64,000 nt of DNA from an uncultured Acidobacteriota bacterium (GCA_963818645.1 CAWFTF010000008.1:36197-100196), one strand, 5' to 3'. Shown: positions 51 through 63,100, counted from the stretch's first letter. The notes: generated from the letters alone by a model not told the origin. Translations and numbers: made by a program.

Positions 51-105
51 CGGGATTCGGGATTCGGGATTCGGGATCGGGTTCGGGGCTCGGGATCGCG
101 GTCCT
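51..105. repeat. Heptanucleotide tandem array (CGGGATT)n, degenerating at its right end
   Basis: Direct reading gives cgggatt cgggatt cgggatt cgggatc gggttcg gggctcg ggatcg. It lies in the spacer downstream of the pgl stop. Confidence 0.9.
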
Positions 106-152
106 GGTTCATTGTTCTCAGTTAGTGTTGCTCTCGTGTGTGACAGCGCAGG

Positions 153-861
153 TCACACGCGTGCGCCGGCCTCTTCGTCCAGCAGCACCAGCGGCCGTTG
201 CGCGCGACGGAGAACGAGCGACACCGGCAGCTGTGCATCCTTCTGTCGCAGCGCCTCCCGCATGATGGCGGCCTTCGATTCGCCAAGGGCCATCACGATT
301 ACGCGCTCGGCGCTTGTCAGCATCGGCAGCGTCAGCGTGAGCCGTCGTGGCGGTGGCTTCGGTGCGTCGACAATCGGCAGTGCCAGCCGATGTTCCTCGG
401 ACAGCGCCGAGTGTCCAGGAAAGAGCGACGCGACATGCCCGTCAGGTCCAACGCCCAATAACAACAGATCCAAACGCGGCGTCTTGCCGAGTACGCGAAC
501 GAGTTCCTCGCCGTAGGCAGCGGCTGCGGCTTTGAGATCAGCGTCGATCTGCGTGCATCGGGTGGATCGACGAACGGCTCGCGCCCGATTTCCGAAGCCA
601 CAGGGAATCCGCCAGTCCGAAGTTCGAATCGGGCGAGGACGCCGGCACGGCGCGCTCGTCTGCCCAGAAGATGTGCGTGACGTCCCAATCGAGGAGAACC
701 GTCGCAAGGACGGGGAAGCTGTGAATGCCGACAGATCCGCCGGGCAGCGCCATCGCGAACAGCCCGCGACGGGATCTGGCGTGCGCAGCCTCGACGCTGA
801 CATCAGCAGCGAGGCGATCGAGCAGTTGCCTGACCGGGGCGACCAGAACCTCGGGACGCAT
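153..861 (-). CDS. pgl: 6-phosphogluconolactonase with an apparent +1 frameshift near 545-552
   Basis: The N-terminal half is in ORF 538..861 (FAMALPGGSV, WDVTHIFWADERAVP, DSNFG). The C-terminal half is in ORF 153..803 (LLLLGVGPDGHVASLFPGH, PPPRRLTLTLP), one frame away. The start overlaps the zwf stop (TAATG). Confidence 0.85.
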
Positions 862-2264
862 TACTTCGCCACGAGTTGTGGGTCTGGTGCTGTCGTCGGC
901 ATCCAGCCGCCAAGGTCTTCAACGAGGCTATTGGCCTCGTCCGGTCCCCAGCTTCCGCATTCGTACATCGCCAGCGGCTTCGGCGCGTTCAACACAGGGT
1001 CGACGATCGCCCAGGCGGCTTCAACGACGTCCTGCCGAGCGAAGAGTGTGGCGTCTCCTGTCATCGCGTCGCCGAGCAGCCGCTCGTAGGGGCCGAGCCG
1101 CGTGCCGTGACCCTGTGCTGCCGTCGCGACGACCGACAGCGTCACGGGATCACCGGTCATGCCTTCTCCGGGACGCTTCGCCGACGCGCCGATATCGATC
1201 GCCACGTTCGGCGCCAACGTGAACCTCACGTAGTTGTCGCCGTGCGACGTCTCTCGAAACACGACCGGCGGCGCTTCTTTCAGGTTGACCACGATCTCGG
1301 TCGAGGTCGTGTGCAGACACTTGCCGGCGCGCACGTAGAAGGGGACACCTTCCCATCGCCACGAGTCCACGAAAAGGCGCATCGCCACGAACGTGGGCAC
1401 CTGTGAATCTGTCGCGACGCTGCGCTCATTGCGGTAGCCGCGAAACTGACCGACGACGACATCGGACGCGGAGAGTTGTCTCACGGTTCTCAGCACCTTT
1501 GCCTGCTCGTCGCGCACGGCCTCGTGATAGGTCGATGAGGGTGCCTCCATCGCGAGGTAGCTCACGATCTGCAGCAGATGGTTCTGCACGACGTCGCGGA
1601 TGACACCGGTCTCCTCGTAGAAGGCGCCGCGGCCCGCCACGCCGAAGTTCTCGGCCATCGTGATCTGCACGTGATCGACGTAGTGACGATTCCAGATCGG
1701 CTCGAGAAACGCGTTCGCGAATCGGAAGTACAGGATGTTCTGCACGGCTTCTTTCCCGAGGTAGTGATCGATGCGGAAGATCGCGTCCTCCGGGAAGACC
1801 GCGCGGAGCGTCGCGTTCAGTGAGCGCGCGGACTCGAGATCCCGGCCGAACGGTTTCTCGATGACCACCCGGGCGCCGTGCGCCGTGCAACCCGTTTCGG
1901 TCAGGTGCGTCACGACGGCCGGAAATGCCGTCGGTGGAATGGCCAGGTAATACAGCGGCCGCTGTGCGTTGCCCAGTGCCTGACGAAGACGCTCGAACGT
2001 GCTCGAGTCGTTGTAGTCGCCGGAAACGAGCTGGAACAACGCAGCGAGCTTGTCGAATACGGCCTGCTCGAAGCTGCCATCGGCCACGAGGCTGGCCCGC
2101 GCCCGTTCGATGAGATTGTCGAGTGTGCCCGAGCGTGCGACGCCGATCACGGGCACCGTCAACCGGCCACGACGGACCAGCGCGTGAAGAGCGGGAAAGA
2201 TCTTCTTGTATGCGAGGTCGCCCGTGATCCCGAAGATCACGAGCGCATCAGAGCGTTCGTGCAT
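861..2264 (-). CDS. zwf: Glucose-6-phosphate 1-dehydrogenase
   Basis: Motifs [17 protein letters not shown] (dinucleotide binding), EKPFG and RIDHYLGKE (active-site nonapeptide). The start is taken at [12 protein letters not shown], whose ATG overlaps the gnd stop (TGATG). Confidence 0.95.
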
Positions 2265-3259
2265 CACGATTTCTCCGCGTGCCCGCCGAAGCCCCACCGC
2301 ATGGCCGAGAGGACGCGATTCTGGAAGTCGGCTTCACCACGAGAGGCGAAGCGTTGAAACAGCGCCGTCGCGAGTACCGGCGTCGGCGCGCTCACATCGT
2401 TCGCTGCGGCCAGGGCCCAGCGACCTTCACCGGAGTCAGAGACTCGGCCCGCAAAGCTGTCGAGCGATCCGTTCTGCGCGAACGCCAGCGCCGTCAGGTC
2501 GAGGAGCCACGAGCTGATCACGCTGCCGTGCCGCCACACTTCGGCGATCGACGCCATGTCGAAGTCGTAGCGATAGTGCTCGGGATGGCGAAGCGGGGTC
2601 GTTTCGGCGTCGTGCTCAACCGAGCTCTTTCCCGCGTTCGCATGCTTGAGGACGTTGAAGCCCTCCGCATAGGCGGCCATCAGCCCGTACTCGATCGCGT
2701 TGTGAATCATCTTCACGAAGTGGCCTGCACCGGGAGGTCCGCAGTGGAGATAACCGCGCAAGGCGGTGCTGCCTGAGGTTGGTCCGCCGGACGCCCCGCC
2801 GGGAGACAAGGCGGCGAACATCGGATCGAGCCGTGCGACGACATCCTCGTCACCACCAATCATCAGGCAGAAGCCGCGCTCGAGTCCCCACACGCCGCCG
2901 CTCGTGCCCATGTCCACGTAGCGGATGCCGTGCGGCGTCAGGCGCGCGTGACGGGCAATGTCATCCTGAAAAAGGGAGTTGCCTCCGTCGATGACGACGT
3001 CCTGCGGTCGCAGGAGAGGAACCAGCTCATCGAGCAGCGCGTCAACTGCCCCGACTGGAACCATCACACAGAGCACGCGCGGCGTCGAGAGCCGCGCAGC
3101 GAAATCGGCGAGCGACGTAGCGCCGGTCGCACCCTCTGTGACGAGTGAGTGAACTGCGTTGGAGGACCGGTCGAAGACGACCAGTGAATGGCCGGCGCGC
3201 ATCAGCCGGCGCACCATGTTCGAGCCCATGCGGCCCAGCCCAATCATTCCGATCTGCAT
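2264..3259 (-). CDS. gnd: 6-phosphogluconate dehydrogenase, decarboxylating, short (about 330 aa) form
   Basis: [19 protein letters not shown] Rossmann motif at ATG 3259, preceded by GGAGAAGG. The 50-aa N-terminal extension in the ORF track is Arg/Pro-rich and unsupported. Confidence 0.9.
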
Positions 3260-3317
3260 GCCTTCTCCCGTCTGTGAGGAAAAGGCCAGTATAGGACGGT
3301 GGGGTCGGGAGTGTTGG

Positions 3318-5006: not shown

Positions 5007-5076
5007 TCGGGATTCGGGATTCGGGATTCGGGATCCGGGACCCGGGATCCGGGATTCGGGATTCGGGATTCGGGAT
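5007..5076. repeat. Heptanucleotide tandem array (CGGGATT)n with a GGATCC/CCCGGG-rich centre
   Basis: Direct reading. About 10 units of 7 nt upstream (minus-strand sense) of the ExeA-like gene. Its orientation is opposite to the array at 5671..5723. Confidence 0.9.
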
Positions 5077-5118
5077 GCCCGCGCCAAGTCGGCGTTTGCG
5101 CTGACGCGTGAGATCTAT

Positions 5119-5655
5119 GGTTCCGGCAGGCTCCTGCGGAGATGTGAAGTATCTGCGTCGAGGCGAACACTAGGATAGTACCGATCAGATACGCCAGTCC
5201 GCCTACTTTCGAAACGAAGCGCCAGTTCCAGTTGGGCCTCGACCTCAGCGTGGAGCCCAGCGCTCGATTACGTAGTTGCGATAAGGTGCGTGCCCTATCG
5301 TGATCTTCGACGACCTGGCAGATGGGAATGCTTACTGCGGTCGACGGAAGCTGAGAAGTCAGGCCAACGCGATCGTTCCTCGCGAGGGAAGGAACTCGTC
5401 AGCACTAGACATCCTCTCAGTACGACACGCCGCAGTTGCCATCCCCTCGCTCATCGCGGAAGGGCAGTGAACGAGCACCACGATCCTACCGCAACTACGG
5501 ATCGCGCTAGGGATTCGCAGGCTGAGTGTGAAACTCAGATGGAACTCGCACTACGGCTCGCGTTCGCTCCGCCTGCTCGGCTTCGACCGGTGAGCTTGTT
5601 GTTAAGTCGAGTGGGTCAGGTGCTTCACGGCCTGGCCCGAAGCCTGCCGGAAACC
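5119..5655. other. About 540-nt element without an ORF, with terminal inverted repeats. Candidate structured ncRNA or MITE-like element, strand unknown.
   Basis: ggttccggcaggct (5119-5132) is complementary to agcctgccggaaacc (5641-5655). A nested 10-bp pairing joins 5271-5280 to 5490-5499. Local hairpin ctgagt-gtgaa-actcag lies at 5522-5538. No convincing ORF on either strand. By eye the stretch is less GC-rich than its flanks. Confidence 0.4.
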
Positions 5656-5670
5656 TAGCGGGGACGAACT

Positions 5671-5723
5671 CGATTCCGGACCCCGAATCCCGGGCCCCGG
5701 ATCCCGAATCCCGGATCCCGGGC
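5671..5723. repeat. Heptanucleotide tandem array (GAATCCC/GGATCCC)n, inverted relative to 5007..5076
   Basis: Direct reading gives cgattcc ggacccc gaatccc gggcccc ggatccc gaatccc ggatccc, immediately downstream of the ABC permease stop. Confidence 0.9.
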
Positions 5724-11660: not shown

Positions 11661-12071
11661 GTGAGACGGTCACGGTTGCTTTACGTCTTCGCACTCTCAC
11701 TCCTGCTCGTTGCACCAAGCGGCGTGTCGGCGCAATTCGGACATCCACTCAAAGGGCAGTGGAGCGGTCAATGGGGTCCTGCTGACAGCCCTAAGCGATT
11801 GCTTCTCGATCTGCACTGGGACGGCAAAGAGATCACGGGTGTCGTGAATCCGGGAGATGAGAATGCGACTGTAAAGGCGGTGACGTTCGACTACTCGAAT
11901 CCTTCAGCGTGGAAGGTCAAGCTGACGGCCGAGGGCAAGGACAAGTCGGGCAAGCCGGTCGCGATCTCCGTGGACGGAACCCTCGAAAACATCGGCGCCT
12001 ACAGCAAGCTGTTTCATGGCACCTGGACCGAAGCGGGCCAGAAGGGCGATTTCACGCTCACGCGCAATTAG
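11661..12071 (+). CDS. Small secreted protein of unknown function
   Basis: GTG start with AGGAGGAAG upstream. Signal peptide LLLVAPSGVSA-Q. 136 aa with beta-rich composition. Followed by a strong terminator. Confidence 0.7.
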   Translation: MRRSRLLYVFALSLLLVAPSGVSAQFGHPLKGQWSGQWGPADSPKRLLLDLHWDGKEITGVVNPGDENATVKAVTFDYSNPSAWKVKLTAEGKDKSGKPVAISVDGTLENIGAYSKLFHGTWTEAGQKGDFTLTRN

Positions 12072-12161
12072 TAGGCGGTAAGCAGTAGGCAGTATGCCGG
12101 GGCCGCGCTTCACGCGGCCTTTTTCGTTTTTGCCTACCGCCTACTGCCTACCGCCTACTAC
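12071..12161. repeat. Inverted pair of heptamer arrays (GTAGGCN)n / (GCCTACN)n flanking a terminator hairpin
   Basis: Left arm gtaggcg gtaagca gtaggca gtatgcc (12071-12098). Right arm gcctacc gcctact gcctacc gcctact (12132-12159). The arms are mutually complementary. Confidence 0.9.
12101..12131 (+). terminator. Rho-independent terminator
   Basis: 7-bp GC stem ggccgcg/cgcggcc with loop cttca, followed by tttttcgttttt. Confidence 0.8.
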
Positions 12162-12181
12162 AGAGTTAAAATCCACAATTC

Positions 12182-13208: not shown

Positions 13209-13244
13209 CGGACCGTGGACTGAAGACCGTGGACCGTGGACTGG
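13209..13244. repeat. Heptanucleotide tandem array (GGACCGT/GGACTGA)n
   Basis: Direct reading gives cggaccgtggactgaagaccgtggaccgtggactgg. It lies in the 61-nt ligJ-ligK spacer. Confidence 0.85.
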
Positions 13245-14044: not shown

Positions 14045-14130
14045 GCGGCAGCACGACGCCCCCTGAATGGGGGGGAAGTGTGGGTTCCAGGCTCGGGATC
14101 GCGTGGAACAACTCTAGGAGAACGCCAGAC

Positions 14131-17100
14131 ATGTATAGAGCAGTGAAGTGTTTCCTCGGGGTGGCAGCGTTCACGTTGCTGTCGACCTCCGCGTTCGCCC
14201 AAGGCACCCTGACAGGTACTGTTCGCGATGCGTCCGGTGCTGTGTTGCCAGGTGTGACGGTCGAGGCTGCGAGCCCGGCGTTGATTGAAAAGGTCCGCTC
14301 GGTGGTCACCGACGGCACCGGCCAGTACCGCGTCATCGATCTGAATCCGGGCACGTACTCGCTGACGTTCGCGCTTCCTGGTTTCAGCACGGTCAAGCGC
14401 GAAGGCATCGAGATCACCGGCACCGCCGTGCTGACGATCCCGATCGAGATGCGCGTGGGCGCGCTGGAGGAAACGATCACCGTGACCGGTGAGACGCCGG
14501 TCGTCGACGTGCAGAGCACGAAGCGTGAAACCGTGCTCAGCCAGGAGGTCATTTCCGCGATCCCGGCCACGCGCGCGGTCGGCTCGCTGCTCAACGCCAC
14601 TCCCGGGCTGACCGTCGACGGCAACGGCCTCGCGGCGACGCCGACGATGACGTTCTTCAGCGCGCGCGGCGGTCAGACCAACGAAGGCCGTATGGCCGTG
14701 AACGGCATGACGGTCGCGGCGGCGTTCAACGGCGGCGGCGTGTCGTCGTACATCCTCGACTCGGTGAACGTCGACGAGGTGGCGGTCGTCGTGTCCGGCG
14801 GACTCGGCGAATCGGACATCGGCGGTCCGACGATGAACCTCGTGCCGAGCTCCGGCGGCAACGCGTTCCGCGGCCAGGGATTCATCAACAATGCCGGCGA
14901 GTGGTCCAAGGGCAGCAATCTCGACGACAGCCTGCGCGCGGTCGGCATCGTGGATCCGCCCGGCATCATCGGCGCCTACGACGCCAGCGTGTCGTACGGC
15001 GGCCCGATCAAGCGCGACCGGCTGTGGTTCTTCGGCAGCTATCGCAAGCTGGATACCTCCACGACCGTCGAGGGCATCGTTGCCAACGCCAATGCCTACA
15101 ACGCCTCGAGCTGGCGGTGGGCGCCGGACGACAGCCTCGCCGCGAGGCAGTTGCAGGGACGGACGATGTACATCGGCCGCCTGACGGCGCAGGCTACGCA
15201 GAAGAACCGCTTCACCTTCGGCCACGAATATCAGCTTCGCTGCGAGGGCGCCCCGCTCAAGGTGGAAACCGATGGCTGCCACTCCCGTAGCGCCAGACTG
15301 GATTCCCGGAACCAACGCGACCACCTCGCCCGAGGCCGGGACCAACTACTTCGATTTCCCGTACTACCTGACGCAGGGAACCTGGTCGGCGCCGATGACG
15401 AACAAGCTGCTGCTCGAGGCCGGCTTTTCGCGCTTCTCGTACTACCATGCGGGCGGCCCGGGCCAGTTGCCGCCGGACGGGATCTTCGACCTGATCTCGG
15501 TGACGGAGCAGTCGACGGCGATCGATCCGGCTACCGGCATCCGCTATTCACCGCGCGCGAACTATGGGTACCGCGCGGTCCCGACCTACAACGACAACTA
15601 CGGCAACCCGAACAACTGGCGCGCCTCGGCGTCGTACGTGACCGGCGCGCACAACATGAAGGTCGGTTATCAGGGAAGCTGGCTCATTGCCAAGTCGAAG
15701 GTCGTGACACCCGAGTCGCTCGTGCAGTATCGGTTCAACCTCGGAGCACCGAATGCGTACTCGTTCCGCCTGCCGGACTGGCAAACGACCGATAACACGA
15801 AGGTCGCCGCCCTCTACGTGCAGGACACGTGGACCAGGGGACGGCTGACGCTCGCCGGCGCGCTCCGCTACGATCGCGCGTGGAGCTACAGCCCGGAGGA
15901 CGGCAACGGTACAACGAAGACGTCCATCTTCAATTCCGCGGCCGTCACGTACCCGCAGTCACCGGGCGTGAACGCCTACAACGACCTCACCCCGCGTATC
16001 GGTGTCGCGTACGACATCTTCGGCAACGGCAGGACGGCCATCAAGTTCAACTTCGGCCACTACCTCGACGCCGCCACGAACGACAGCATCTACACGCAGA
16101 ACAACCCGGCGAACAAGGCTGTGCGCCAGGTGCTGAACCGTTCCTGGACAGACAACGATCGCGACTACGTGATCGATTGTGACTTGACGAACTTCGGCGA
16201 CGCAGAGGCCGGCGACAGGATCGGTGGACAACTGCGGCGCGCTGTCGGGCGACGACTTGAATTTCGGCCGGGAGGGGACGAGCTTCGCGCAGGTCGACCC
16301 GAAGCTGCTTGGCGGCTGGGGTGCGCGGCAGAGCGACTGGCAGTGGGGCATCAACGTGCAGCACGAGCTGGTGCGGCGGGTCTCGCTCGAGGTCGGCTAC
16401 AACCGGCGGTGGTGGACGGGACCGAGCGCGTCCGATGGTTTCGTCACCGACGATCTCTCCCGTGCTCCGGGCGACTACGAGGCGTTCACGCTCATCGCTC
16501 CGAGCGACCCGCGCCTCCCGGGCGGCGGCGGCTACCCGATGACGTTCTACACCCAGACGGTGGCCGCGGGCCCGCGTGCGGCGCAGAACTTCACCACGCG
16601 CGAGGACAACTACGGCAACCTGACGGAGTACTGGCACGGTGTCGACTGGACGGTCAATGCGCGTCTCCGCGACGGGCTGTTCCTCCAGTTCGGCGCGGGC
16701 ACTGGCCGCAAGATCATCGATCGGTGCGACTCGATCACCAAGGTCGACCAGCCGACGATTCCGACGAACGCCGTCACTGCGCCGGGGTTGCAGCAGGCGA
16801 CAGCCTGCTACAGCGAGGAGCCGTGGCAGACGAACCTGCGGGGTTTGGCGAGCTACACGCTGCCGAAGATCGACGTCCGGGTCAGCGGAACGTTCCGCTC
16901 GCAAACACCCGATTCGCGTCTAGCGACCTGGGTCGTGCCGAACACTCTCATCCAGGCGTCGCTCGGCCGTCTGCCGTTCGGCCAGCTGGCCAACGACACG
17001 ACGAGCGTCGCGCTGCTCGACCTCGACGAGCGCCGCCTGTATGCCGACAATCGGCGCTCCCAGGTCGATCTGCGCGTTGCCAAGTTGTTTCGCTTTGGCG

Positions 17101-17279
17101 CCAGACGCCTCGATGCCGGCTTCGACGTGGGCAATCTGTTCAACACCAACTACGCCACGGTGTACGACAACACATACCAGTACACCGTCAACAACACTGC
17201 GCAGGGCGGGACGTGGAACAACCCGACGAGCGTCGTCGGCGCACGGTTCCTCCGCTGGAATCTCACGGTCGACTTCTAG
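14131..17279 (+). pseudogene. TonB-dependent receptor with a carboxypeptidase-regulatory-like N-terminal domain, interrupted by two +1 frame shifts (about 15265 and about 16215)
   Basis: Signal peptide then GTLTGTVRDASGAVLPGVTVEA...TGQYRVIDLNPGTYSLTFALPGFSTV, parallel to the 25088 receptor. Coding continues through ORFs 14080.., 15272.. and 16224.. in frames 1, 2 and 3. It ends ...RWNLTVDF, a terminal aromatic typical of OM barrels. Confidence 0.85.
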
Positions 17280-17291: not shown

Positions 17292-17317
17292 GAGCCGGCT
17301 CGATGAAGAGCCGGCTC
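17292..17317 (+). terminator. Hairpin terminator after TonB-dependent receptor 1
   Basis: gagccggctc-gatgaa-gagccggctc forms a 10-bp stem because the palindromic unit is repeated. A T-containing tract tcggtcttc follows. Confidence 0.55.
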
Positions 17318-17319
17318 TC

Positions 17320-17462
17320 GGTCTTCAGTCCTCGGTCCTCAGTCCACGGTCGTCGCCGTCGCACAGTCGCACGAGCCGAACCTGAACCTGGAACCCCGAA
17401 TCCCGAACCCCGAATCCCGAACCCCGAATCCCGAATCCCGAATCCCGGGCCCCGCATCCCGG
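17320..17462. repeat. Composite heptamer arrays: (CAGTCCT)n, then (GAACCTG)n, then (GAATCCC/GAACCCC)n
   Basis: Direct reading gives cagtcct cggtcct cagtcca cggtcgt, then gaacctg aacctgg, then aaccccg aatcccg aaccccg aatcccg... ending 50 nt before the next start codon. Confidence 0.9.
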
Positions 17463-18006: not shown

Positions 18007-18011
18007 ACCAT

Positions 18012-18158
18012 CGTTGACTTGAGGATTGGTGATTATTGATTCGTTGTTGATTGCTGATTGACGATTTCTGATTTGACGCTGATTCCAGCAACCAATCAAC
18101 AATCAACAATCTGCCAATCAACAACGATTCGACAATCACAGATCGCCAAATCAACAAT
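18012..18158. repeat. Long imperfect inverted repeat built from (TGATTGN)n / (CAATCAA)n heptamers
   Basis: The left arm (18012-18085) is rich in gattggt/gattgtt. The right arm (18091-18158) reads caatcaa caatcaa caatctg ccaatca. The arms are complementary. The repeat lies between convergent genes. Confidence 0.9.
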
Positions 18159-18161
18159 GAT

Positions 18162-18944
18162 TTAGAGACTTCCGAGAAAACCCATCAGGGCTGATGTGAA
18201 CGCGTCGGCCTGCTCGACGTTGCTCAGATGCGCGGCGTCGAGCGTGAGTAGCTTCGATCCGCTGATGCGCCCGTGAATGAACGCGAGCGCCTCTGGCGGC
18301 GTCGGCACATCCGTATGGCCCGCGATCACGAGAACGGGGCAGCTGATCGTGGCGATCGCCTCCCGCAGATCCTCGTCGCGCAACGCCGCACAGCATCCCA
18401 GGTATCCGGTCGCCGGGCACGTCTCGACCATCGTCTTGAAGCGCGCCACGATGTCCGGGTGCCGTTGATGGAAGTCCGGCGAGAACCACATCTGCATTGC
18501 GACTTCCGCGACTCCTCTCATCCCCTGTTGCTGTACGAGTGCGATCCGATCGGTCCACGACTGCACAGAGCCGATCCGCGCGGCTGTGTTCGCGAGCACG
18601 AGGCTGGAGACGCGATCGGCGGCGTGAACGCCCAGCCACATCGCCGTCAGCCCGCCGAGTGAGATGCCGCAGATGTGCGCCTGCTTCACGTCCTCGGCGT
18701 CGAGGATGGCGAGCGCATCGCGTGCGAGTTGTTCGATGGAGTAGTTGCCGGCGGGCACCGACGACGACCCGTGCCCGCGCGCGTCGTAGCGGATGACGCG
18801 ATATGTGCCGACGAGCGCGGGGATCTGTGCCGACCACAGGTCCCGTGTCGTGCCGATTGAGTTGATGAAGAGAAGAGTGGGCCGCCCGAGCGGCCCGTCG
18901 ACCGAGTAGCTGATGCGGGCGCTCGCGCTTTCGATCTCGCTCAC
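18162..18944 (-). CDS. Alpha/beta hydrolase, 3-oxoadipate enol-lactonase (PcaD)-like
   Basis: LLFINSIGTTRDLWSAQ, RYDARGHGSS, nucleophile elbow GISLGG. The start is taken at GTG 18944 (VSEIESASARISY) with GGGAG upstream. ORF-track start 18971 lies inside the repeat. Confidence 0.8.
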   Translation of the reverse strand: MSEIESASARISYSVDGPLGRPTLLFINSIGTTRDLWSAQIPALVGTYRVIRYDARGHGSSSVPAGNYSIEQLARDALAILDAEDVKQAHICGISLGGLTAMWLGVHAADRVSSLVLANTAARIGSVQSWTDRIALVQQQGMRGVAEVAMQMWFSPDFHQRHPDIVARFKTMVETCPATGYLGCCAALRDEDLREAIATISCPVLVIAGHTDVPTPPEALAFIHGRISGSKLLTLDAAHLSNVEQADAFTSALMGFLGSL

Positions 18945-18946
18945 AG

Positions 18947-19027
18947 TCAACTCCCAACGCCCAAACTCCAACTCCCAAGATCCAAACCTGCCGTTTGGAA
19001 GTTGGGAGTTGGGAATTGGGATTTGAT
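18947..19027. repeat. Hairpin of inverted heptamer arrays (CCAACTC)n / (GAGTTGG)n
   Basis: caactcccaacgcccaaactccaactcccaagatccaaac, loop ctgccg, then tttggaagttgggagttgggaattgggatttg. Confidence 0.9.
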
Positions 19028-20214
19028 CAGTGCTTGCTTGTTGCGGAGGCCATCGCTGCCTGGCCGCGCGCGTGGCTGGTGGAGAAGATCACGTGCAGCG
19101 ACATCAGCGCCTGCAACGGGTGCGCTCCTGCCTCCGCCAGCGGGCCGACGTGGTCGCTGACCTTGCCGCCCTTGCCGACGTTGATCAGTTCCTTTGCGGC
19201 CTCGCGCTGTTTGCCCTTCAGGCCGTACTCGTCAGCGACTGTCTCGAAGTCGTTGATGATGCGGTGACGCAGATCCGCGCTGTGACGCGACTCGAACATC
19301 AACTTGTTCAGCCCGTAGGCTTCCGACGGCGGATGCTTGTAGAACCGGAAGCCCTGGTTCTCGAACTTGAAGCCGCCGAACTGATCCGCCACCTGCATGC
19401 GCTCCTTCGTGCGCGCGCGCTGCGGCAGGAAGCGCATCATGCAGAGCCCGTGGTGCCAGGTCGGGATGTAGTCGATCAGCTCGCCTTCCAGCGTGCCAAT
19501 CGCACCAAACATCACGGCCCAGTTGAGCATCTCTGTGTTGCCGACTTCGTCGAGCTGCGTGCCGGTCATGTCGAGCAGCGCGTCGGTATTGCCCATCTCG
19601 AACTGCGAGACGAGCCAGCGATCGAAGTCGAACTCCGGCGTGAGGTACTTGGTCGTGCCCGGGAAGTGCGACATGCCGCCGCTGGCGATGATCGCCACGC
19701 GTTCCTTCCGTCCCTTCACGATCTCGGCGATCGCCTTGCCGAGGGCGGCGCACCGCCTGGGAGTTGGCAGCGGCGGAACGTACGTGTTCGTGAAGAAGGG
19801 GACTACCGGAATCGGCCGTTTGCCGATCACGTACTCGAACGGGATCGAGAACGCGTGACCGAGCTCGGCGTCCTCCGAGTAGGCCATGTCGAAGTTGTAG
19901 TTCGTGACCAGCTTGTTGAGGATGTCCTCGGCTAGTTCGCGATGGATCGGCAGGTTGTGCTCGCGTCCGGCGAACTTCGCGACCGCGCGGTCTCCCGCTA
20001 CGATGGCGAACGACGGCACGCAGCTCACCGAGAACGTCTCAACGTGGTCGGCGCCGAAGAACAGGATGGCATCCGGCTTGGTCTCGTCGAGAACCTTGCC
20101 GAGCTCGTTCATCGCCGCGCCGGCCTGTGCGAGTTGATTCGGATCTTCATCCGGTGGCCGCGTGAACATGTACGGCGTATGGCACGTGCCTACTGCTGCA
20201 ACGATCTCGCCCAT
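19027..20214 (-). CDS. Class III extradiol ring-cleavage dioxygenase, fused LigB-LigA architecture (gallate/protocatechuate 4,5-dioxygenase-like, GalA/DesB type)
   Basis: N-terminal LigB-like core (GTCHTPYM, FGADHVE, SGGMSHFPG) plus a C-terminal extension of about 100 aa resembling the LigA small subunit. 395 aa. Confidence 0.8.
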   Translation of the reverse strand: MGEIVAAVGTCHTPYMFTRPPDEDPNQLAQAGAAMNELGKVLDETKPDAILFFGADHVETFSVSCVPSFAIVAGDRAVAKFAGREHNLPIHRELAEDILNKLVTNYNFDMAYSEDAELGHAFSIPFEYVIGKRPIPVVPFFTNTYVPPLPTPRRCAALGKAIAEIVKGRKERVAIIASGGMSHFPGTTKYLTPEFDFDRWLVSQFEMGNTDALLDMTGTQLDEVGNTEMLNWAVMFGAIGTLEGELIDYIPTWHHGLCMMRFLPQRARTKERMQVADQFGGFKFENQGFRFYKHPPSEAYGLNKLMFESRHSADLRHRIINDFETVADEYGLKGKQREAAKELINVGKGGKVSDHVGPLAEAGAHPLQALMSLHVIFSTSHARGQAAMASATSKH

Positions 20215-20229: not shown

Positions 20230-20252
20230 AAGTCCTCAGTCCTCAGTCCTTG
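20230..20252. repeat. Short heptamer array (AGTCCTC)3
   Basis: aagtcct cagtcct cagtcct tg in the 42-nt ligC to dioxygenase spacer. Confidence 0.8.
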
Positions 20253-21189: not shown

Positions 21190-21206
21190 TCCACCTCCTC
21201 AGCTTC

Positions 21207-21380
21207 GCCAATCACTCAATCTTTGATTTCATGATCTTTGATTGGTGATTCGTTTTCGATTGGGGATTGGTGATTGTTGATTTCGTTCCGGGTTCCGCGC
21301 GCGGCCCGAATCATCAATAATCACCAATCTCCAATCAACAACGAATCGATAATCAAAGATCGCCAAATCGACAATTCGAG
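21207..21380. repeat. Long inverted repeat of (TGATTGN)n / (CAATCAN)n heptamers around a GC hairpin. The right arm is about 85 percent identical to 18100-18158.
   Basis: Left arm ...ctttgattggtgattcgttttcgattggggattggtgattgttgattt. Centre ccgggttccgcgcgcggcccg. Right arm aatcaccaatctccaatcaacaacgaatcgataatcaaagatcgccaaatcgacaat. Confidence 0.9.
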
Positions 21381-21389
21381 AGATTACCA

Positions 21390-22296
21390 CTAGCTCCAAT
21401 ACAGCTTGGTGGGATTGTCCACCAACAGGCGGCGCTGAAGCTCCGTAGTGGTCGCGATGTGCGGGACGTAATCAACCAGCAGCCCATCATCTGGCATGTG
21501 GTTCTTGAGATTGGGATGCGGCCAATCCGTGCCCCAGAGCACGCGATCGGGAAACGTCTCGACGAGGCGACGCGCGAAGGGGACGACGTCGCGATAGGCG
21601 TTCTTCTCGCCATGAATGGCAGGCGGACCGGTCACCGTGAGCCGCTCAGGGCAGCTGACTTTCGACCAGATGTTCTGATGCTCGCGCATCATCCGCACGA
21701 ACAGCTCGAACTCGGGGCCGTCGACCGGCTTGGTCACATCGGGCCGGCCCATGTGATCGACGACGACGGTCGTTGGGAGAGTGGTGAAGAACTCCCAGAG
21801 CTCCGGAAGGTCGGCGGCCTCGAAGTAGATGACGACGTGCCAGCCGAGGGGCGCGATGCGGTGCGCGATCTCGGTGAGGACGTCGCGTGGCGTGAAGTCC
21901 ACGAGGCGCTTGACGAAGTTGAAGCGCGTGCCGCGAATGCCGGCGTCGTGCATCGCCTGTCAGCTCGGTGTCGGTGACGTCGCGGTTCACCGTCGCGATG
22001 CCGCGAGCGCGGTTGTTCGACGCGAGAAGCGCATCGACGAGCGCGCGATTGTCAGTGCCGTGACACGTCGCCTGGACGATCACGTTCTTGTCGAAACCCA
22101 GTCGGTCCCGCAGCGCGAAGAGCTGCTCTTTCGACGCATCGCACGGCGTGTACTTGCGTTCGGGCGCGTACGGGAACCGGTTGCCTGGCCCGAATACGTG
22201 GCAGTGCGCGTCAACGGCCCCGGCTGGGACCTTGAACGATGGAATGGACGGATTGGGATGAAAGGCTAACCATCCGGGCGTGACTTCGAACGTCAT
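21390..22296 (-). CDS. ligI: 2-pyrone-4,6-dicarboxylate lactonase (amidohydrolase) with an apparent +1 frameshift near 21955
   Basis: The N-terminal part is in ORF 21646..22380 from MTFEVTPGW (AVDAHCHVFGP, ATCHGTDN). The C-terminal part is in ORF 21390..21953 (GIRGTRFNF, VVVDHMGRP, LWGTDWPHPN). Total length is 907 nt, which is 3n+1. Confidence 0.85.
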
Positions 22297-23318: not shown

Positions 23319-23325
23319 CGGAGCT

Positions 23326-45868: not shown

Positions 45869-46540
45869 GTGCGAATAGCAGCCGTCCTGATCGCTGCCGC
45901 GCTTGCCGGTCAGGTCTTGATATCAGCGCAGACCACGCAGGCCAAGCGTCCGCCCGCGCGCCGGCCAACGGTGCCGCCGAAGATCGAAGAGGCGATGGTG
46001 AACTGCCCGACAGTGCTCGGGGAGGGAGCGAACACCGGGCGGATGTTTTGCGATGTCCTGATCGAGCGAGAGCCCAGGGCTGGCATCATCATTCAGTTTC
46101 CGCCCCATACGGGCGACGTGACGCTCAGCTTCACGCTCCACAATCGGCACACGTATTCCGAGGAGGAGGTCAAGAACAAGCGTGCGTACCACCGCTACAC
46201 GGCTTCGATCGGAGTGATGGCGCTGGACAACACGCTTCTCAGTCGCGCTGTCGTTCAGAACGAATTCCGCACGGCAGGCGATCTCGTTGACCGGGTGCGC
46301 GGCGGAAGCGGCGCAGGCGGGCTGAAAGCTGTCGCGCCCACCGGCGCCGAGAACATCGTCTTGACGATCCCCGAGACGGAGCAGGGTGTCAGCCTGCTTG
46401 GTGAGAAGTTGACGGTGATCCGCGTGGACGGCAAGGACGAGTTCACAACGCTGGGCCGCCCGATCGCCGTCATCAGTAACGTGATGATCGAGTATCGGCC
46501 TGGGCCACCGCCCCGGCCGGCGCCGGCGCGGCAAAAGTGA
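45869..46540 (+). CDS. Secreted protein of unknown function
   Basis: GTG 45869 gives VRIAAVLIAAALAGQVLISAQ as a signal peptide. Coding-like composition, Pro-rich C-terminus. The ORF-track start 45806 overlaps folE. Confidence 0.6.
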   Translation: MRIAAVLIAAALAGQVLISAQTTQAKRPPARRPTVPPKIEEAMVNCPTVLGEGANTGRMFCDVLIEREPRAGIIIQFPPHTGDVTLSFTLHNRHTYSEEEVKNKRAYHRYTASIGVMALDNTLLSRAVVQNEFRTAGDLVDRVRGGSGAGGLKAVAPTGAENIVLTIPETEQGVSLLGEKLTVIRVDGKDEFTTLGRPIAVISNVMIEYRPGPPPRPAPARQK

Positions 46541-46549
46541 TCTCGTGCC

Positions 46550-48347
46550 TTACCTGCAGGAGATGACTCGGACGGACGTCCGGGTCGCCTTCGGATCTTC
46601 GTCGTCGGTGACTTCGTTCAGTTTCTGAACAACGGCCGCAAATCCGCAGCGGTCGGGATCGAACAATCCCCACTCGTCCTGAGCTGGCCGCGTATTCGAC
46701 TTGGAGGGCTTCTTCGGTCCCTTCTTGTCGGAGCGCTTCCGCGATTTTTCTGGCTTCTCCTTGTTGACAGCCGGGTGCGCCTCGACTGGTGGCAGGCTCG
46801 GCGGTCGCGATCTCGTGGAGCGGGTTCGGCACGACAGCCGCCGGCGGCGCTGCGGCCTCGAGCGCGGACTCGAGATCATGCAGCGCCGGCGACGCGTTCA
46901 GCTCGTAGACGTCCTCTTCGGGTGGAGCGGCGTCGACTGCAGTCTCCGCCTCGGGCTCCTCGAGTGCGTCGATGTCGCACGTCAAGTCGACTTCGAGAGG
47001 CCCTCGGGTCTCTCCCGGGGTTTCTGACGTCGCAACTGGCTCCGCCATTTGAGGTGCGATCGACGCCTGTCCCTGCTCCGCCACTGGCTGCTCCGAGTCC
47101 ACCAGAGACGGCTCAGAGGCCCGGACTTTCTTACCCCACGCGCCGCGGATGGCGGCCAGCGCAGCCTCGAACGATGCCGTACGCCGTGGTGCCGGAGGCG
47201 CAACGGGGGGAGGAGGCGCAACCGGAGACACGGGTTCAACGTGATCTCGGGCCGGCTCCTCTCGAGGTTCGATTGGCGCGAGATCGTACTCGACGATGAC
47301 CGGCGTGGCCACGACGTCGGAAGCCTCGTCGACGATAGCCTGAACATCGTCCGTCATCTCGTAGACGATGGCGACCGGCATGTCCTCGTCTACGGCATCC
47401 TGCTGTTCGATGTGAGCTGCGGGTTCGTCGATCGGGACAGAGGCAGAAGCGGCGACAGTGTCGTCCGATTGGTCGTCGACCGACGCGAGCATCTGCAGGC
47501 TCGCATCCTCGACATACATCGGCGCTTGTTCTGCGTCGGGCCGTGGTGCCGGGTCACAGTGTGCGACCGTGTCGGGCTGAGCCACGTCAGGCTCACCGTA
47601 CGGCAGCACCTCGACATACATCGGCGCTTGCTCTTCGTCGGGCCGTGGTGCCGGGTCACAGTGTGCAACCGCATCTGGCGGAGCCACGTCAGGCTCACCG
47701 TACGCGAGCACCTGCTCATCTTCGTGTCGCTCTGCCGATTCGTCGAGGCTTTCCTCGTCCCGCGCCGGAGGCGCTGGTGCGACGTAAATCGGCGTCTCGT
47801 CCCGGAATTCGTATTCGACGGGGTGCGCGGTGGCAGCGTCGGACGTATACGACTCCGGCTCATACGCAGGCACATACGTGACGGTCACCTCGTGTGGCTC
47901 TGCGTCGGCAGGAAGAGCGGCAGGGGGCTCCGGAGATTCGTTGGTTGCCTGGCGCTCCTCGGCGGCCCGTGCAAGATAGACGGCGATTTCGTCGGCGAAG
48001 AACGTGGGATCGCAGCCGTCCGGCGCCGACTCGTTTCGGCGTTTGCGACCGAATGAGAACAGGCCACGGCCGGCTGGCTTGGCCACGCCGAGGACAGGGA
48101 TGCGCAGCGTTTGCACGTGCGCCCCTGCAGGTCCGATCTCACGCAGATACTCTGCCAGGACGCCGTCGTCGAACGGGGACAGCAACGGCGAGGTCATGAT
48201 GAGGTCAGGCACGCGCTCCGCGAGCACTTGAAGCGCCTCGCCGGCGGATTCGGCTTGCACGAACTCCGCGTCAAATCGTCCGCGGACCAGTGCCGCGAGT
48301 TGAGCGGCCTGGCGTTTATCGGCGTCGATCGCGAGAATGAGCTGCAT
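46550..48347 (-). CDS. Receiver-like domain protein with a long acidic/Pro-rich repeat region and a conserved-looking C-terminal WGLFDP..CGF motif. Apparent +1 frameshift around 46790-46880.
   Basis: N-terminal MQLILAIDADKRQAAQLAALV...VPDLIMTSPLLSPFD resembles a CheY-like fold. The C-terminus continues in ORF 46550..46879 (KKPSKSNTRPAQDEWGLFDPDRCGFAAVVQKLNEVT). Confidence 0.65.
47511..47714. repeat. Two tandem copies of a 102-bp repeat inside the receiver-like gene
   Basis: gacatacatcggcgcttg... recurs at 47511 and 47613. It encodes VL(A/P)YGEPDVA(P/Q)PD(A/T)VAHCDPAPRPD(E/A)EQAPMYVE twice. Confidence 0.9.
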
Positions 48348-49319: not shown

Positions 49320-49353
49320 ACAGGGCGCAGGTATCGATGGCTGATCAGACGAA

Positions 49354-49378
49354 GGGCGGGCAGAACGTAAGCCCGCCC
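49354..49378 (+). terminator. Intercistronic hairpin (possible attenuating terminator) after flp1
   Basis: gggcggg-cagaacgtaag-cccgccc forms a 7-bp GC stem. There is no strong T-tract. Confidence 0.4.
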
Positions 49379-49414
49379 TCTCGTTCACTGGAAAGGACGG
49401 ACGAAGAGAGGGCG

Positions 49415-51445: not shown

Positions 51446-53567
51446 ATGCGAATGACACGGCACACAGCACGGATCGCCGCGTGCGGCGTCCACATGTTCA
51501 TCATCGGGGTGTTTGGCACCCACGCGACCTTCGCACAGGTGCAGCCGAGCCCTCGGTTGGGCTCGAGCGCCCAGACACCTGCTGCGCTGCCGTCGGCGTC
51601 GGCGCCAGTTATCGAGAGCACCGACGCGAAGGCGGTCGAGTTGCTGGTCGGGCGTTCGGCGCTCGTCGACATCGGCACGCCGATCGCGCGCGTGTCGTTG
51701 ACCAGTGCCGACATCGCCGACGCGCTCGTCACGGGCCAAAGTCAGTTGCTCGTGCACGGCAAGACGCCCGGCTCCATCTCCATGTTCGTCTGGGATCGGG
51801 CCGGCGCAGTGAAGCGATACGAGATCGCTGTGCAGCGCGACCTTGCACGCCTGAACGATCAGATGAGGGAGCTCTTCCCCGGTGAAAGCATCCAGGCGCG
51901 GAGCAACGGTAAGGCAGTGGTGCTGTCCGGGAAGGTCACGAGCAAGGAGGTCGCGGACAAGGCGGTCGCGGTTGCTGCCGGCTACGTCGACAAGCCGGCA
52001 GACGTGACGACGCTACTGCAAGTGCAGCCGGGACCGCGAAGCAACCAGGTGCTGCTGCGTGTCCGGTTCGCTGAGGTCAGCCGCTCGGCGATGTCCGAGT
52101 ACGGCATGTCGCTGTTTACCGGCCCGACTGGTATCAACAACACAATCGGCCGCGCGACGACGCAGCAGTACCCCGCGCCCGCTTACACCGACCTGGCGTG
52201 GCAGAAGGCGGGCTCCGATTTCGGCTCCGACGTGACGAAGGCAGAAGGCAAGCTCGCCTTCAGTGATTTCCTGAACGTGTTTCTGCTGAACCAGAAATAC
52301 GACCTCGGCGTGCTCATCAAGGCGTTGCAGAACAAGGGGCTGTTTCAGAGCCTGGCCGAACCGAACCTCGTGGCCGAAAGTGGCAAGGAAGCGAGCTTCC
52401 TGGCCGGCGGTGAGTTCCCGGTTCCGATCGCGCAGGGTTCAGGCGCGAACATCGGCGTATCGGTGCAGTTCAAGGAGTTCGGCATCCGCCTCAACTTCAC
52501 GCCGACCGTCGTGGGCGATCGTGTCCACCTCAAGGTTCGTCCCGAAGTCAGCACGCTCGACTACGGCAACGCGGTTCTCCTGAGCGGATTCCGCATCCCC
52601 TCGCTTTCGACTCGCCGCGCCGAGACCGAGCTCGAGCTGCAGAGCGGCCAGACGTTTGCCATCGCCGGTCTGATGAGCAACCAGATGCAGACGACGATGC
52701 AGAAGATTCCTGGCATCGGCGACATTCCGATCCTCGGCTACATGTTCAAGAGCAAGGCGTCGAAGCGCGATCAGACGGAACTCGTCGTGATGATTACGCC
52801 GGAGATTCTGCCGAACAATTCGCCGGGCGTGACGCCGTCGCTTCCGAATTACCCGGATACGTTCATGCCGCCGCTGTCGGATCTGAAGAAGACGTATCCC
52901 GCTCCGGCGCCCGCGTTCACCGAGTCGTCACGGTCGCAGGCGGCGAATCCGGCAGCAGCGCCCGTTGCGGACAACCGCACCGAGGTCGAGCGCGCACAGG
53001 ATCGGGCACTCGCAACGCTCGACGGTCAGAGCCCAACGCCAGCCGCGGCCGCCGTTGCCGCCGCGCCCGCAGCAGGCGAGCCCCGTCGTGGCTCCGCCCG
53101 TTGCAGCGCAGGCTCCAGCGGCGCAGGTAACGGAGCAGGCAACGGATCCGGCGGTCTCGCAGCAGGCCGACGCCGATGTCGCCGAATTGTCGAAGGAACA
53201 GCGTCAGCTCGAGAAGGCCGCACGCGAACAGGCTGAGCGTGATGCGAAGGCTGCCGACAAGGCGCGGAAGGAAGAAGCGAAGCGGGCCGCTGCAGCGCAG
53301 GCGAAGCAGGACGAGCTCGATCGCGAGCAGGCCAAGAAGGATGCGAAAGCCGCCAAGGTTCAGGCGAAGAAAGACGCCGAAGCGGCCAAGCTCCAGGCCA
53401 AGGCCGTCAAGGAAGCCGAGGCAACGGCGCAGCGTCAGATGCTCGACGCCAGGCGCGAAGCCGAGCGGGAAGCCGAGCGGCAACGAGCGATCGATGCCGC
53501 GGCCGAGCGACTGCGCACTGCCGAAGCGGAATATCAGGCCGAGTTGGAGCGACGCACGCAGCGCTGA
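51446..53567 (+). CDS. cpaC: Secretin CpaC/RcpA with a C-terminal Ala/Lys/Glu-rich coiled-coil extension. Apparent +1 frameshift in the cccc run at 53081-53084.
   Basis: GGEFPVP, QTFAIAGLM, IPGIGDIPILGYMFKS, ELVVMITPEIL. After the shift ORF 52965..53567 continues PVVAPPVAAQ...SKEQRQLEKAAREQAERDAKAADKARKEEAKRAAAAQAK... Confidence 0.8.
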
Positions 53568-62343: not shown

Positions 62344-62360
62344 AGGGGTCTGACCCCTTC
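62342..62360. terminator. Bidirectional hairpin terminator between convergent genes
   Basis: gaagggg-tctga-ccccttc forms a 7-bp stem, immediately after the stop at 62343 and 7 nt from the minus-strand stop at 62367. Confidence 0.55.
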
Positions 62361-62366
62361 ACACTT

Positions 62367-63020
62367 CTACGCTGCCAGCCACACGCCTCCAACCACAATC
62401 GCCAGAAGCGCAGCCGCGGTCATCATCGCGCGGTACGCGCGTGGGCCGTGTATGCCGCGAATCGCAATCGTTCCGACCGCTGCTGCGAACATCGTCATTG
62501 CGGCAACGGTGCCCACGCCGAAGGCCGCGATATAGAGGACCGCAGCTGTCGTCGTCGGCAAGGCGAGTGCAGGTAGCACGCCGAAGAAGTGGGAGCTTCC
62601 TGCGACGCCATGTAACACGCCCATGCAGAATGAGGCGTGGGCGTGTCCCAGTCGGCGAATCCATGCGGGGCCAGCCTGTACGTGAAGGTGGTCGTGCGTG
62701 CGTTCGTCGTGCTGGTGCGGCGCTCGGCCAACGTGGAGGCAACGACTCAGGGCCCACAGGCCGATGCCGATGAGCGCCGCTCCAACGACACGCTCGCTCC
62801 ATGTCGAGAGGATTTCGATCGGCGGCAGAAGCTCGCGCAGGAGGACGCCGAGTAGCGCGACGACGACGACGCCCGAGGCATGACCCAGCCCCCACGTCCA
62901 TCCGGCAATCCAACCCTTGCGGCGCCCATCGACTGCAAGCGGTGCGACTGCGGCCAGATGATCGGGTCCGGAGAGCACGTGGAACAGGCCGGCAAGCGCG
63001 CCGGTCACGAGGACTAGCAT
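62367..63020 (-). CDS. HupE/UreJ- or NicO-like metal (Ni/Co) transporter family membrane protein
   Basis: Start at MLVLVTGALAG. FHVLSGPDHLAAV (H-x5-DH), GLGHASG, and a His-rich loop HVGRAPHQHDERTHDHLH. About 6 TM helices. The family assignment is tentative. Confidence 0.6.
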   Translation of the reverse strand: MLVLVTGALAGLFHVLSGPDHLAAVAPLAVDGRRKGWIAGWTWGLGHASGVVVVALLGVLLRELLPPIEILSTWSERVVGAALIGIGLWALSRCLHVGRAPHQHDERTHDHLHVQAGPAWIRRLGHAHASFCMGVLHGVAGSSHFFGVLPALALPTTTAAVLYIAAFGVGTVAAMTMFAAAVGTIAIRGIHGPRAYRAMMTAAALLAIVVGGVWLAA

Positions 63021-63025
63021 TCCGT

Positions 63026-63100
63026 AACTCCCAATCGCCAACTCCCAACTCGATCCCAAGTCCCGGATCCCAGCCCCGGATCCCGAGCCCCGGATCCCGG
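63026..63100. repeat. Composite heptamer arrays (CCAACTC)n then (CCGGATC/CCCGAGC)n
   Basis: aactcccaatcgccaactcccaactcgatcccaagtcccggatcccagccccggatcccgagccccggatcccggg. It lies in the SDR-stop to transporter-start spacer. Confidence 0.9.

Follow-up and report, generated by a model that had tools for sequence, protein, structure and literature searches.

The DNA analyzed here (the window) is a stretch of 64,000 nt from an uncultured Acidobacteriota bacterium (GCA_963818645.1 CAWFTF010000008.1:36197-100196), with a G+C content of about 63%. Many of its spacers carry tandem arrays of a 7-nt unit, mostly just behind stop codons, and these arrays are our subject. Genes were called with a self-trained codon-usage gene model and checked by Pfam. 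The gene content is that of an ordinary chromosome: pentose-phosphate enzymes, an ABC transporter, an operon for aromatic ring cleavage (LigB), outer-membrane receptors (CarboxypepD_reg/OMP_b-brl_4), a pyrroloquinoline quinone (PQQ) dehydrogenase and a Tad-pilus operon. No tRNA is found in the window, and no Rfam family matches any part of it at gathering thresholds. The LigB-like protein (19027-20214, - strand) served as the query with which 55 related loci were retrieved. Its relatives are mostly metagenome-assembled genomes labelled Acidobacteriota, Vicinamibacteria or Vicinamibacterales (gp6), with two records labelled Bifidobacteriaceae; by these relatives the source organism is placed as an uncultured member of the Vicinamibacterales (Acidobacteriota). 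Below, W stands for the window, and labels such as L003 and L048 for related loci or contigs compared with it.

Arrays were detected in the window with Tandem Repeats Finder and, independently, with a lag scan (standard setting: 12 or more matches in a 14-nt window; stricter setting: 18 or more in a 21-nt window). A preliminary description of this DNA had listed period-7 arrays at 16 places. Tandem Repeats Finder reports all 16 and recovers the words that had been quoted (CGGGATT, CAACTCC, CAATCAA, CAGTCCT, GGACCGT, GTAGGCA and TGCAAAA). In the standard lag scan, lag 7 yields 17 segments, compared with 0-5 at each of the other lags from 4 to 13; lag 14, a multiple of 7, yields 14 and lag 15 yields 4. 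At the stricter setting the counts are 9 for lag 7, 6 for lag 14, 5 for lag 21 and 0-1 for all others. The window thus holds head-to-tail 7-nt copies longer than chance, as is characteristic of heptameric long simple sequence repeats (SSRs). The period is dominant rather than strict: several arrays have small indels or higher-order units of 14 or 21 nt, which outscore the 7-nt unit (39384-39436, for example, is 100% at period 21). At least eight unrelated words occur within the 64 kb; CGGGATT-type arrays lie in six window spacers and CAACTCC-type arrays in five.

The arrays are genuine and not assembly artefacts, since at least 10 independent assemblies of the same species, at 97-99.5% identity, carry them. 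The exact LigB-like protein is present on at least 22 contigs from ENA, JGI, NCBI and Logan, and the 10 same-protein contigs that were fetched are 97.4-99.5% identical to the window and contain the same arrays. They are less pervasive than first described. Instead of almost every spacer, about 14 of about 25 non-divergent spacers of at least 30 nt carry one (our own count, with gene calls amended by Pfam), and none was found from 41.2 to 63.0 kb, the whole Tad-pilus operon included. Inverted pairing, said to be usual, applies to just five spacers (12072, 18007, 18945, 21190 and 41027), which fold as array hairpins. Both detection methods agree that the four divergent regions have no array. Location 3' of a stop codon holds for most arrays, but two overlap the ends of open reading frames (ORFs; 22302-22337 and 35821-35851). 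A TATAAT -10-like box adjoins each of two GAATCCC arrays (17391-17461 and, read as its reverse complement, 50-96), which are promoter-proximal.

Among the arrays with G-rich or C-rich words, the first (50-96, - strand; CGGGATT, G3N4, about 7 units) lies 3' of the 6-phosphogluconolactonase gene and reads (GAATCCC)n then GACTTATAAT on the - strand. Ten CGGGATT units at 5007-5076 (- strand) form the left half of a distant inverted pair around a 600-nt region, and a GATCCCG/GAATCCC array of about 7 units (5672-5721, - strand) begins 6 nt past the ABC-2 permease stop. A GAACCCC/GAATCCC array with a 14-nt higher-order unit (17376-17461, + strand) stands immediately 5' of GACTATAAT and the DUF4399 gene. 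Eight units of CGGGATT/CGGGACT with a 21-nt higher-order unit follow the cytochrome c stop (39384-39436, + strand), and at 63026-63100 (- strand), between two - strand genes, an AACTCCC array is followed by a GATCCCG/GAGCCCC array with a 14-nt unit.

CAACTCC and GGGAGTT form the arms of a hairpin that occupies the whole LigB-to-hydrolase spacer (18945-19026, - strand). Another CAACTCC array (22302-22337, - strand) falls within the last 15 codons of an aldo-keto reductase ORF whose stop overlaps the next start (ATGA), and a third, of 4.4 units (35821-35851, + strand), comes right after the cupin-gene stop, within the 12 codons that open a predicted signal-peptide ORF; the start of this ORF was called independently in L066 too. 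Solitary TGGTTGG and GGGAGTT arrays occupy the SnoaL-to-reductase spacer (23323-23380, - strand), where the RNA is unstructured (minimum free energy 0 kcal/mol). At 12070-12159 (+ strand) lies one hairpin, with GTAGGCA (12070-12094) and TGCCTAC (12131-12159) as its arms and a terminator (12099-12131) between them. A GGACCGT array of 4.6 units (13210-13241, + strand) is solitary and without a hairpin (folding z-score, spacer RNA against shuffled sequence, -0.4), and the words at that site are different in L003, L007 and L012. A solitary CTCGGTC/CAGTCCT array (17317-17355, + strand) comes after a U-less stem-loop 3' of an outer-membrane receptor gene. A solitary AGTCCTC array of 2.9 units lies at 20231-20250 (- strand). 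The hairpin with ATGCAAA and CTTTTGC arms (41025-41101, + strand) begins at the PQQ-dehydrogenase stop codon. The two remaining places, 18007-18161 and 21190-21389, are described separately below.

A 23S rRNA-intervening-sequence protein gene (PF05635) in fragments, one per strand, one of them with stop codons, is all that lies in the 600 nt between the inverted CGGGATT arrays (5077-5671). An intact 120-aa PF05635 gene (E=6e-27), with a weak bAvd-like match, lies at L071:3978-4340; L070 and L074 share the L071 allele, and the sequence adjoining the arrays is allelic between strain groups.

Position was analyzed on the window and the 55 loci together (about 0.98 Mb from 56 genomes, with our own gene calls), counting only spacers of at least 30 nt. 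Arrays are confined almost wholly to non-coding DNA, directly 3' of stop codons. The density of lag-7 arrays per kb is 0.03 in coding sequence, 0.99 in tandem spacers, 1.11 in convergent spacers and 0.22 in divergent spacers. An array is present in 18 of 82 convergent spacers (22%), 65 of 406 tandem spacers and 6 of 113 divergent spacers (5%). Both excesses over divergent spacers are significant by Fisher's test (convergent, p=7e-4; tandem, p=0.003). The expected enrichment of 3' over 5' intergenic regions is therefore borne out, with divergent spacers depleted about 4-5 fold. The first array in a tandem spacer lies a median of 7 nt past the upstream stop codon (quartiles 2-31), and the last ends about 30 nt before the next start, the position of which is approximate. 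By Pfam, the neighbouring genes are metabolic, not surface or contingency genes. We rejected phase-variable contingency SSRs as an identification: the hypervariable long arrays sit behind the stops of metabolic genes and are depleted in divergent promoter spacers.

A few arrays adjoin promoter-like sequence. Of 230 array flanks, 5 have a TATAAT no further than about 20 nt from the array end, compared with about 0.08 expected (window 37-46, - strand, and 17455-17462; L003:11951-11974; L005:11671-11727; L015:2853-2878). GAATCCC arrays in the window end immediately 5' of GAC(T)TATAAT. Three of the five belong to a single promoter, orthologous in W, L003 and L005, which precedes the DUF4399 gene; its box is conserved, and the array word in L005 is unlike that in W and L003.

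The five spacers that fold as array hairpins have z-scores of about -4 to -10. Predicted RNA folds reach -59 kcal/mol at 12060-12165 (z -7.1), -42.2 kcal/mol at 18940-19030 (z -5.1) and -34.4 kcal/mol at 41020-41105 (z -6.8), and the spacers at 18007-18161 and 21190-21389 have z-scores of -9.5 and -9.9. The arrays at 13210, 20231, 22302, 23323, 35821, 39384 and 63026 fold no better than shuffles. About one third of the window arrays are paired in long hairpins. In the larger sample, z is below -3 for 50% of tandem and 77% of convergent array-bearing spacers, compared with 31% of tandem, 67% of convergent and 0 of 25 divergent array-free spacers. Hairpins are a general property of 3' spacers in this lineage, and arrays are often, not usually, part of them.

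One hairpin does enclose a canonical terminator, as had been described: GTAGGCA arrays are inverted on both sides of 12099-12131. A scan of 10-26 kb for intrinsic terminators finds a proper U-tract only there, plus a weak match within 18125-18153. The 3' arm of the 41025 hairpin, which lies outside the scanned range, is U-rich by eye. We rejected the idea that the arrays are generally intrinsic (Rho-independent) terminators, as 12099-12131 is the only place in 10-26 kb where a GC-rich stem is joined to a U-tract. A 'three-frame stop barrier', in which a stop codon within a 7-nt unit hits all frames, was likewise rejected; words with a stop number 20/82 in sense and 21/82 in antisense orientation.

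Words are highly diverse, with 85 different canonical words in 139 arrays (window and 55 loci). They are not random draws per genome: an identical word is found at different spacers in 6.2% of comparisons within one genome and in 1.0% between genomes, about six times less. A G-R-Y-T core motif seemed to be shared (4.62 bits, compared with 3.53 for letter-shuffled words), but it is gone when each word is counted once (4.33 bits, compared with 4.32 +/- 0.23 for natural intergenic heptamers), and we rejected it. Counts of intergenic arrays by lag are 2 (lag 5), 7 (6), 109 (7), 33 (8), 54 (9, of which some may be unrecognised coding sequence), 3 (10), 9 (11) and 9 (12). Arrays of 8-nt units include GAATTGAC in L039, and L044 is rich in them too. 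A 9-nt GGGTAGGTC family is present in L011, L019 and L036-L038, this family recurs in several species, and 9-nt arrays are also found in L024, L041 and L043. Arrays of 8- and 9-nt units, too, directly follow stop codons and are often paired in inverted orientation; the spacers that hold them are orthologous to spacers with 7-nt arrays.

The number of units differs among close strains, with a range of 4-16 for the long CGGGATT arrays. Four strains whose flanking protein is identical have 8, 12, 13 and 16 units in the array after the cytochrome c stop (39384), and the array after the ABC-2 stop (5672) varies from 4 to 14 units among strains of the species. Variation of this kind among close relatives is expected of heptameric long SSRs and, taken with the 14- and 21-nt higher-order units, indicates slippage or unequal exchange in place. 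At the 41027 hairpin, the 3' arm in L066 is exactly one 7-nt unit shorter. Short or degenerate arrays and hairpin arms are nearly invariant within the species, whereas long, near-perfect CGGGATT arrays are hypervariable. The preliminary proposal that the 7-nt period is generated by a common mechanism stands in part, in that copy number is polymorphic; relatives with 8- and 9-nt arrays in the same spacers speak against a period fixed at 7. Separately, short-read metagenome contigs (L068, L069 and L073-L078) often end in or just past CGGGATT arrays.

Between species, entire spacers can turn over. When W is compared with L048 (DNA identity about 90%) and L003 (about 87%), some spacers prove to be kept; in other cases, a hairpin or array with another word, or GC-rich palindromes resembling repetitive extragenic palindromes (REPs), have taken the place of the whole spacer. 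Among 41 species, the spacer upstream of LigB has 7-nt arrays in 13, 9-nt arrays in 6, 8-nt arrays in 1, other hairpins in 11 and nothing detected in 10. The array words differ in almost every species, so structure appears to persist at this spacer while sequence turns over. At 12072, L003 mixes GTAGGCA and GTTCAC in both arms and W has GTAGGCA alone in both; therefore, the arms evolve together. At 20231, the single arm in W compared with two in L048 and L003 marks the array as a decayed hairpin.

REP-like palindromes of the type GGCGGGTC...GACCCGCC(CTACG) are also present in the window, at 32984-33051 (z -4.0) and 49340-49385. In L005, L007, L010, L012, L013 and L054 they lie in spacers that hold heptamer arrays in the window.

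The two 'CAATCAA' arrays (18007-18161 and 21190-21389) are a case of their own. Both are copies of one palindromic element of 150-200 nt, in which GATT cores recur every 7 nt and the order of units is irregular but conserved. The first copy (155 nt, no strand assigned) lies between convergent genes; the second (200 nt, - strand) has arms, not a loop, that are kept in eight genomes. Where genes are 76-85% identical to those of W, identity at the 21190 spacer is 65-81% for the arms and 11-21% for the loop. The three bases between one GATT:AATC core and the next vary; the cores do not. Double changes are seen in 2/38 pairs, and the covariation term is unfavourable. Together, 11 genomes have the core GATTCGTTGTTGATTGG at 19 intergenic places; shuffled sequence has it at none. 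No empty site was seen among same-species strains. By its sequence, the element looks like a constrained dispersed family (REP-like, like a MITE (miniature inverted-repeat transposable element), or an array of binding sites) and not a simple repeat.

The preliminary description knew of no equivalent in high-GC bacteria. This is wrong: Xanthomonas has (GGGANTN)n repeats (Rehm et al. 2015, PMC4692102), and Burkholderia, Actinobacteria and Xanthomonas are among the bacteria richest in such repeats (PMC4679880). Nearly every feature of our finding has a published counterpart, high-GC bacteria included; a literature search found no description of such repeats in Vicinamibacteria. The Xanthomonas repeats number 183-186 per genome, of which 89-93% are intergenic, at mean distances of 28 nt to the upstream and 160 nt to the downstream ORF, with 16% between convergent and 7-8% between divergent genes (PMC4692102). 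They use both strands equally, form 70-75 inverted pairs, vary extensively between two close species, are mostly transcribed and form G-quadruplexes in vitro (PMC4692102). Our arrays share the 7-nt tandem unit, including a near-identical G3N4 word (GGGATTC here), the high-GC genome, the equal use of both strands, the frequent inverted pairs and the variation in length and sequence among close relatives. The bias to non-coding DNA, the closeness to the 3' end of the upstream ORF and the preference for convergent over divergent spacers, which mark the Xanthomonas pattern, are all found here. There are also differences. Xanthomonas has essentially one word family with about 186 arrays per 5 Mb; the density here is roughly ten times higher, if the window is typical, with at least eight unrelated words in 64 kb. 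Many of the words here have no G-tract, and the relatives also have 8- and 9-nt units.

Short tandemly repeated repetitive (STRR) sequences in the strict sense belong to heterocystous cyanobacteria, another phylum, and have the words CCCCAGT, TTGGTCA and CAACAGT. To our knowledge, inverted-array hairpins are not part of the STRR definition. With a Vicinamibacterales host and none of these three words among those we recorded, our arrays are not STRRs in this sense. Still, STRRs (Calothrix PCC 7601, cited in PMC4692102) and Nostoc repeats resemble them in having several heptamer words per genome, dispersed, intergenic and also inside operons; Rehm et al. studied GGGGA(C/T)T repeats of Nostoc and cited three Calothrix heptanucleotide repeats (PMC4692102). 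Marine Beggiatoaceae, some cyanobacteria and Bacteroidetes have TAACTGA repeats (MacGregor 2015, PMC4679880), likewise intergenic direct repeats of a heptamer; they comprise 2-6 units or more, other heptamers are at times mixed in, contigs break there, and a putative RNA-level role has been proposed. They differ in having one word, mostly directly upstream of start codons in forward orientation, whereas the arrays here have no orientation bias and adjoin stop codons. As summarised in PMC4679880, Mrazek et al. (2007) found heptanucleotides to be the commonest class of long SSR in most genomes, with repeats of 5-11 nt most abundant in four Burkholderia, three Actinobacteria, two cyanobacteria and Xanthomonas, and proposed a 7-nt polymerase footprint that favours slippage. 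In the parts of that work relayed by PMC4679880 and PMC4692102, long SSRs of 5-11 nt resemble our arrays in that heptamers are commonest, lie in non-coding DNA and have polymerase slippage as their proposed origin. Subirana and Messeguer (2019, PMC6749651) described heptamer-derived satellites in Chloroflexus and discussed the many microsatellites of Burkholderia mallei and B. pseudomallei.

Another likeness is to the REPs and bacterial interspersed mosaic elements (BIMEs) of enterobacteria and pseudomonads: extragenic palindromes at gene 3' ends and between cistrons, species-specific in sequence, with proposed roles as mRNA stabilisers or terminators, and matched by the GC-rich REP-like palindromes in the same spacers of other species. 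REPs are single GC-rich palindromes of 20-40 nt with one conserved sequence, tied to RAYT transposases. The stems here consist of tandem units in many words, and the window encodes no RAYT. The diversity of words shows that the heptamer hairpins do not share one conserved palindrome; the GATT-core element alone behaves in this way.

The arrays are heptameric SSR arrays of a kind known from cyanobacteria (STRR), Xanthomonas, Burkholderia and others. As the best explanation, to which we give a probability of roughly 55%, they originate by slippage in place, and paired arrays serve as 3' structures of the REP type. Replication slippage, or else unequal exchange of blocks of 7, 14 or 21 nt, would lengthen and shorten arrays. 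Where an array lies beside an existing terminator or stem-loop, switching of strand or template may place a copy of it on the opposite side, which would yield inverted pairs with arms that evolve together thereafter. Arrays would persist where they are harmless, in 3' and intercistronic spacers, and be purged from genes and from promoter-only spacers. Paired arrays would then be long, register-tolerant stem-loops at cistron 3' ends, acting as transcript-end or attenuation structures or as barriers to 3' exonucleases; solitary arrays would be halves, either nascent or decayed, and would have no role themselves. Such arm-to-arm copied stem-loops probably behave like REP-type 3' structures.

Several results weigh against this explanation. 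About two thirds of the window arrays are solitary and unstructured, and array-free spacers frequently fold well too, so that the contribution of arrays to folding is moderate (50% compared with 31% in tandem spacers). The 18945 hairpin has no U-tract, and within the scanned 10-26 kb a single array hairpin has one. The sense strand shows no orientation bias (23 arrays G-rich, 18 C-rich and 18 neutral). Stem mismatches on the sense strand are G:U in 139 cases and A:C in 117, which is not significant, and 39 and 32 at higher stringency (p=0.48). The proposed RNA-level role as terminator, stabiliser or processing site thus agrees with position and folding, from which we infer it, and these last two tests, which could have supported it, did not. 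The 8- and 9-nt units of relatives speak against a universal 7-nt ruler, and the recurrence of words within a genome against a purely in-place origin. Arrays that adjoin TATAAT boxes are contrary to a role confined to 3' ends, and the GATT-core palindrome appears to be a conserved dispersed family instead of a local array.

A doubtful but coherent competitor sees in the arrays copies of small palindromic mobile elements, REP/BIME- or MITE-like, which an enzyme encoded elsewhere in the genome would spread in trans, with each genome having its own word families and spacers replaced wholesale by insertion. The six-fold excess of identical words within genomes fits, as do the six spacers with CGGGATT-type and the five with CAACTCC-type arrays in the window, the true dispersal of the GATT-core palindrome, the replacement of orthologous spacers whole and not gradually, the GC-rich REP-like palindromes of other species and the frequent ending of short-read contigs inside arrays. 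However, Pfam finds no transposase, RAYT or reverse transcriptase in the 64-kb window, and 85 words among 139 arrays are too many for a few sequence-specific enzymes. Strains differ in the number of units inside arrays, not in the presence or absence of whole elements; the flanks of same-word arrays have no homology except for two TATAAT boxes; and the mixing of words in both arms of one spacer across species argues for evolution in place.

Distinctly unlikely is a function at the DNA level, whether as protein-binding repeats, formers of G-quadruplexes or i-motifs, or cruciforms, with the variable number of units tuning neighbouring promoters like contingency loci. The absence of strand bias and of G:U asymmetry fits a double-stranded feature, and the long arrays are hypervariable. 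CGGGATT arrays have at least four G3 tracts at 4-nt spacing, so that the sequence pattern of a G-quadruplex is present at 50, 5007, 5672, 17391, 39384 and 63052, and the near-identical GGGAATC repeats of Xanthomonas form G-quadruplexes in vitro (PMC4692102). TATAAT is in excess near array ends, an array stands upstream of the DUF4399 promoter in W, L003 and L005 despite the different word in L005, and invariant GATT:AATC with near-absent covariation is as expected of a sequence-specific binding site. On the other hand, arrays are depleted in divergent spacers, where promoters are certain; most words have no G-tracts and no motif is common to them; three of the five TATAAT cases are a single orthologous promoter; and the associated genes are ordinary metabolic ones. 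No gene-regulatory role has been identified for the Xanthomonas repeats either (PMC4692102).

Three features go beyond published descriptions: the genome-specific word families, the spread of 7-, 8- and 9-nt units among lineages and the conserved GATT-core palindrome. They leave room for a more active, lineage-specific mechanism, which is possible. In its full form, an active process peculiar to Vicinamibacterales would install and spread arrays of 7-, 8- or 9-nt units, according to the lineage, right behind stops by means of an unrecognised enzyme or element, giving each genome its own word families, and the hairpins and the GATT-core palindrome would be a REP-like post-transcriptional layer for which no mobilising protein is known; we consider this a long shot. 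Chance low-complexity sequence or assembly artefact has next to no probability, because, even with single-base insertions showing that the window is not error-free, lag 7 far exceeds the non-multiples of 7, the same arrays are in ENA, JGI, NCBI and Logan assemblies from different assemblers, and the same phenomenon is seen in 55 related genomes.

Why bacteria accumulate 7-nt repeats and what the repeats do is a question on which PMC4692102 and PMC4679880 reach no conclusion about function. In this lineage arrays are very dense and their words numerous, and with dozens of related genomes and assemblies at strain level to hand, the birth of arrays, arm-to-arm copying, decay and replacement can be traced spacer by spacer. 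If paired arrays do set the ends or the stability of transcripts, they would show how operon expression is organised in abundant soil Acidobacteria. On the practical side, short-read assemblies break at the arrays, and long arrays could be used as strain markers.

A longer inverted repeat lies in a 971-nt convergent spacer between outer-membrane receptor and major facilitator superfamily (MFS) transporter genes. Its two arrays (28418-28662 and 29174-29373) have 9 and 8 copies of the core GTCGGTGCGAT at 21-24 nt spacing, around about 530 nt. The core has just one other match in the window, with one mismatch and in a gene; L048 and L003 have similar sequence. The region 28300-29500 has no Rfam match at E up to 1, and the central ORF between the GTCGGTGCGAT arrays has no Pfam match.

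Relative to the same-species short-read contigs L057 and L058, the window has single-base insertions at 15295, 16200, 21963, 22404 and 25079. Insertions split an outer-membrane receptor gene (14080-17279) and an amidohydrolase gene (21390-22290), as assembly errors or pseudogenes. At 47507-47713, a 102-nt unit occurs twice with 91% identity, in a 624-aa ORF (46473-48347, - strand) with no Pfam match. After the Tad secretin ORF comes a repetitive stretch rich in lysine, alanine and glutamate (53237-53567, with a 33-nt period at 53328-53402), which is either a C-terminal tail or a separate small ORF.

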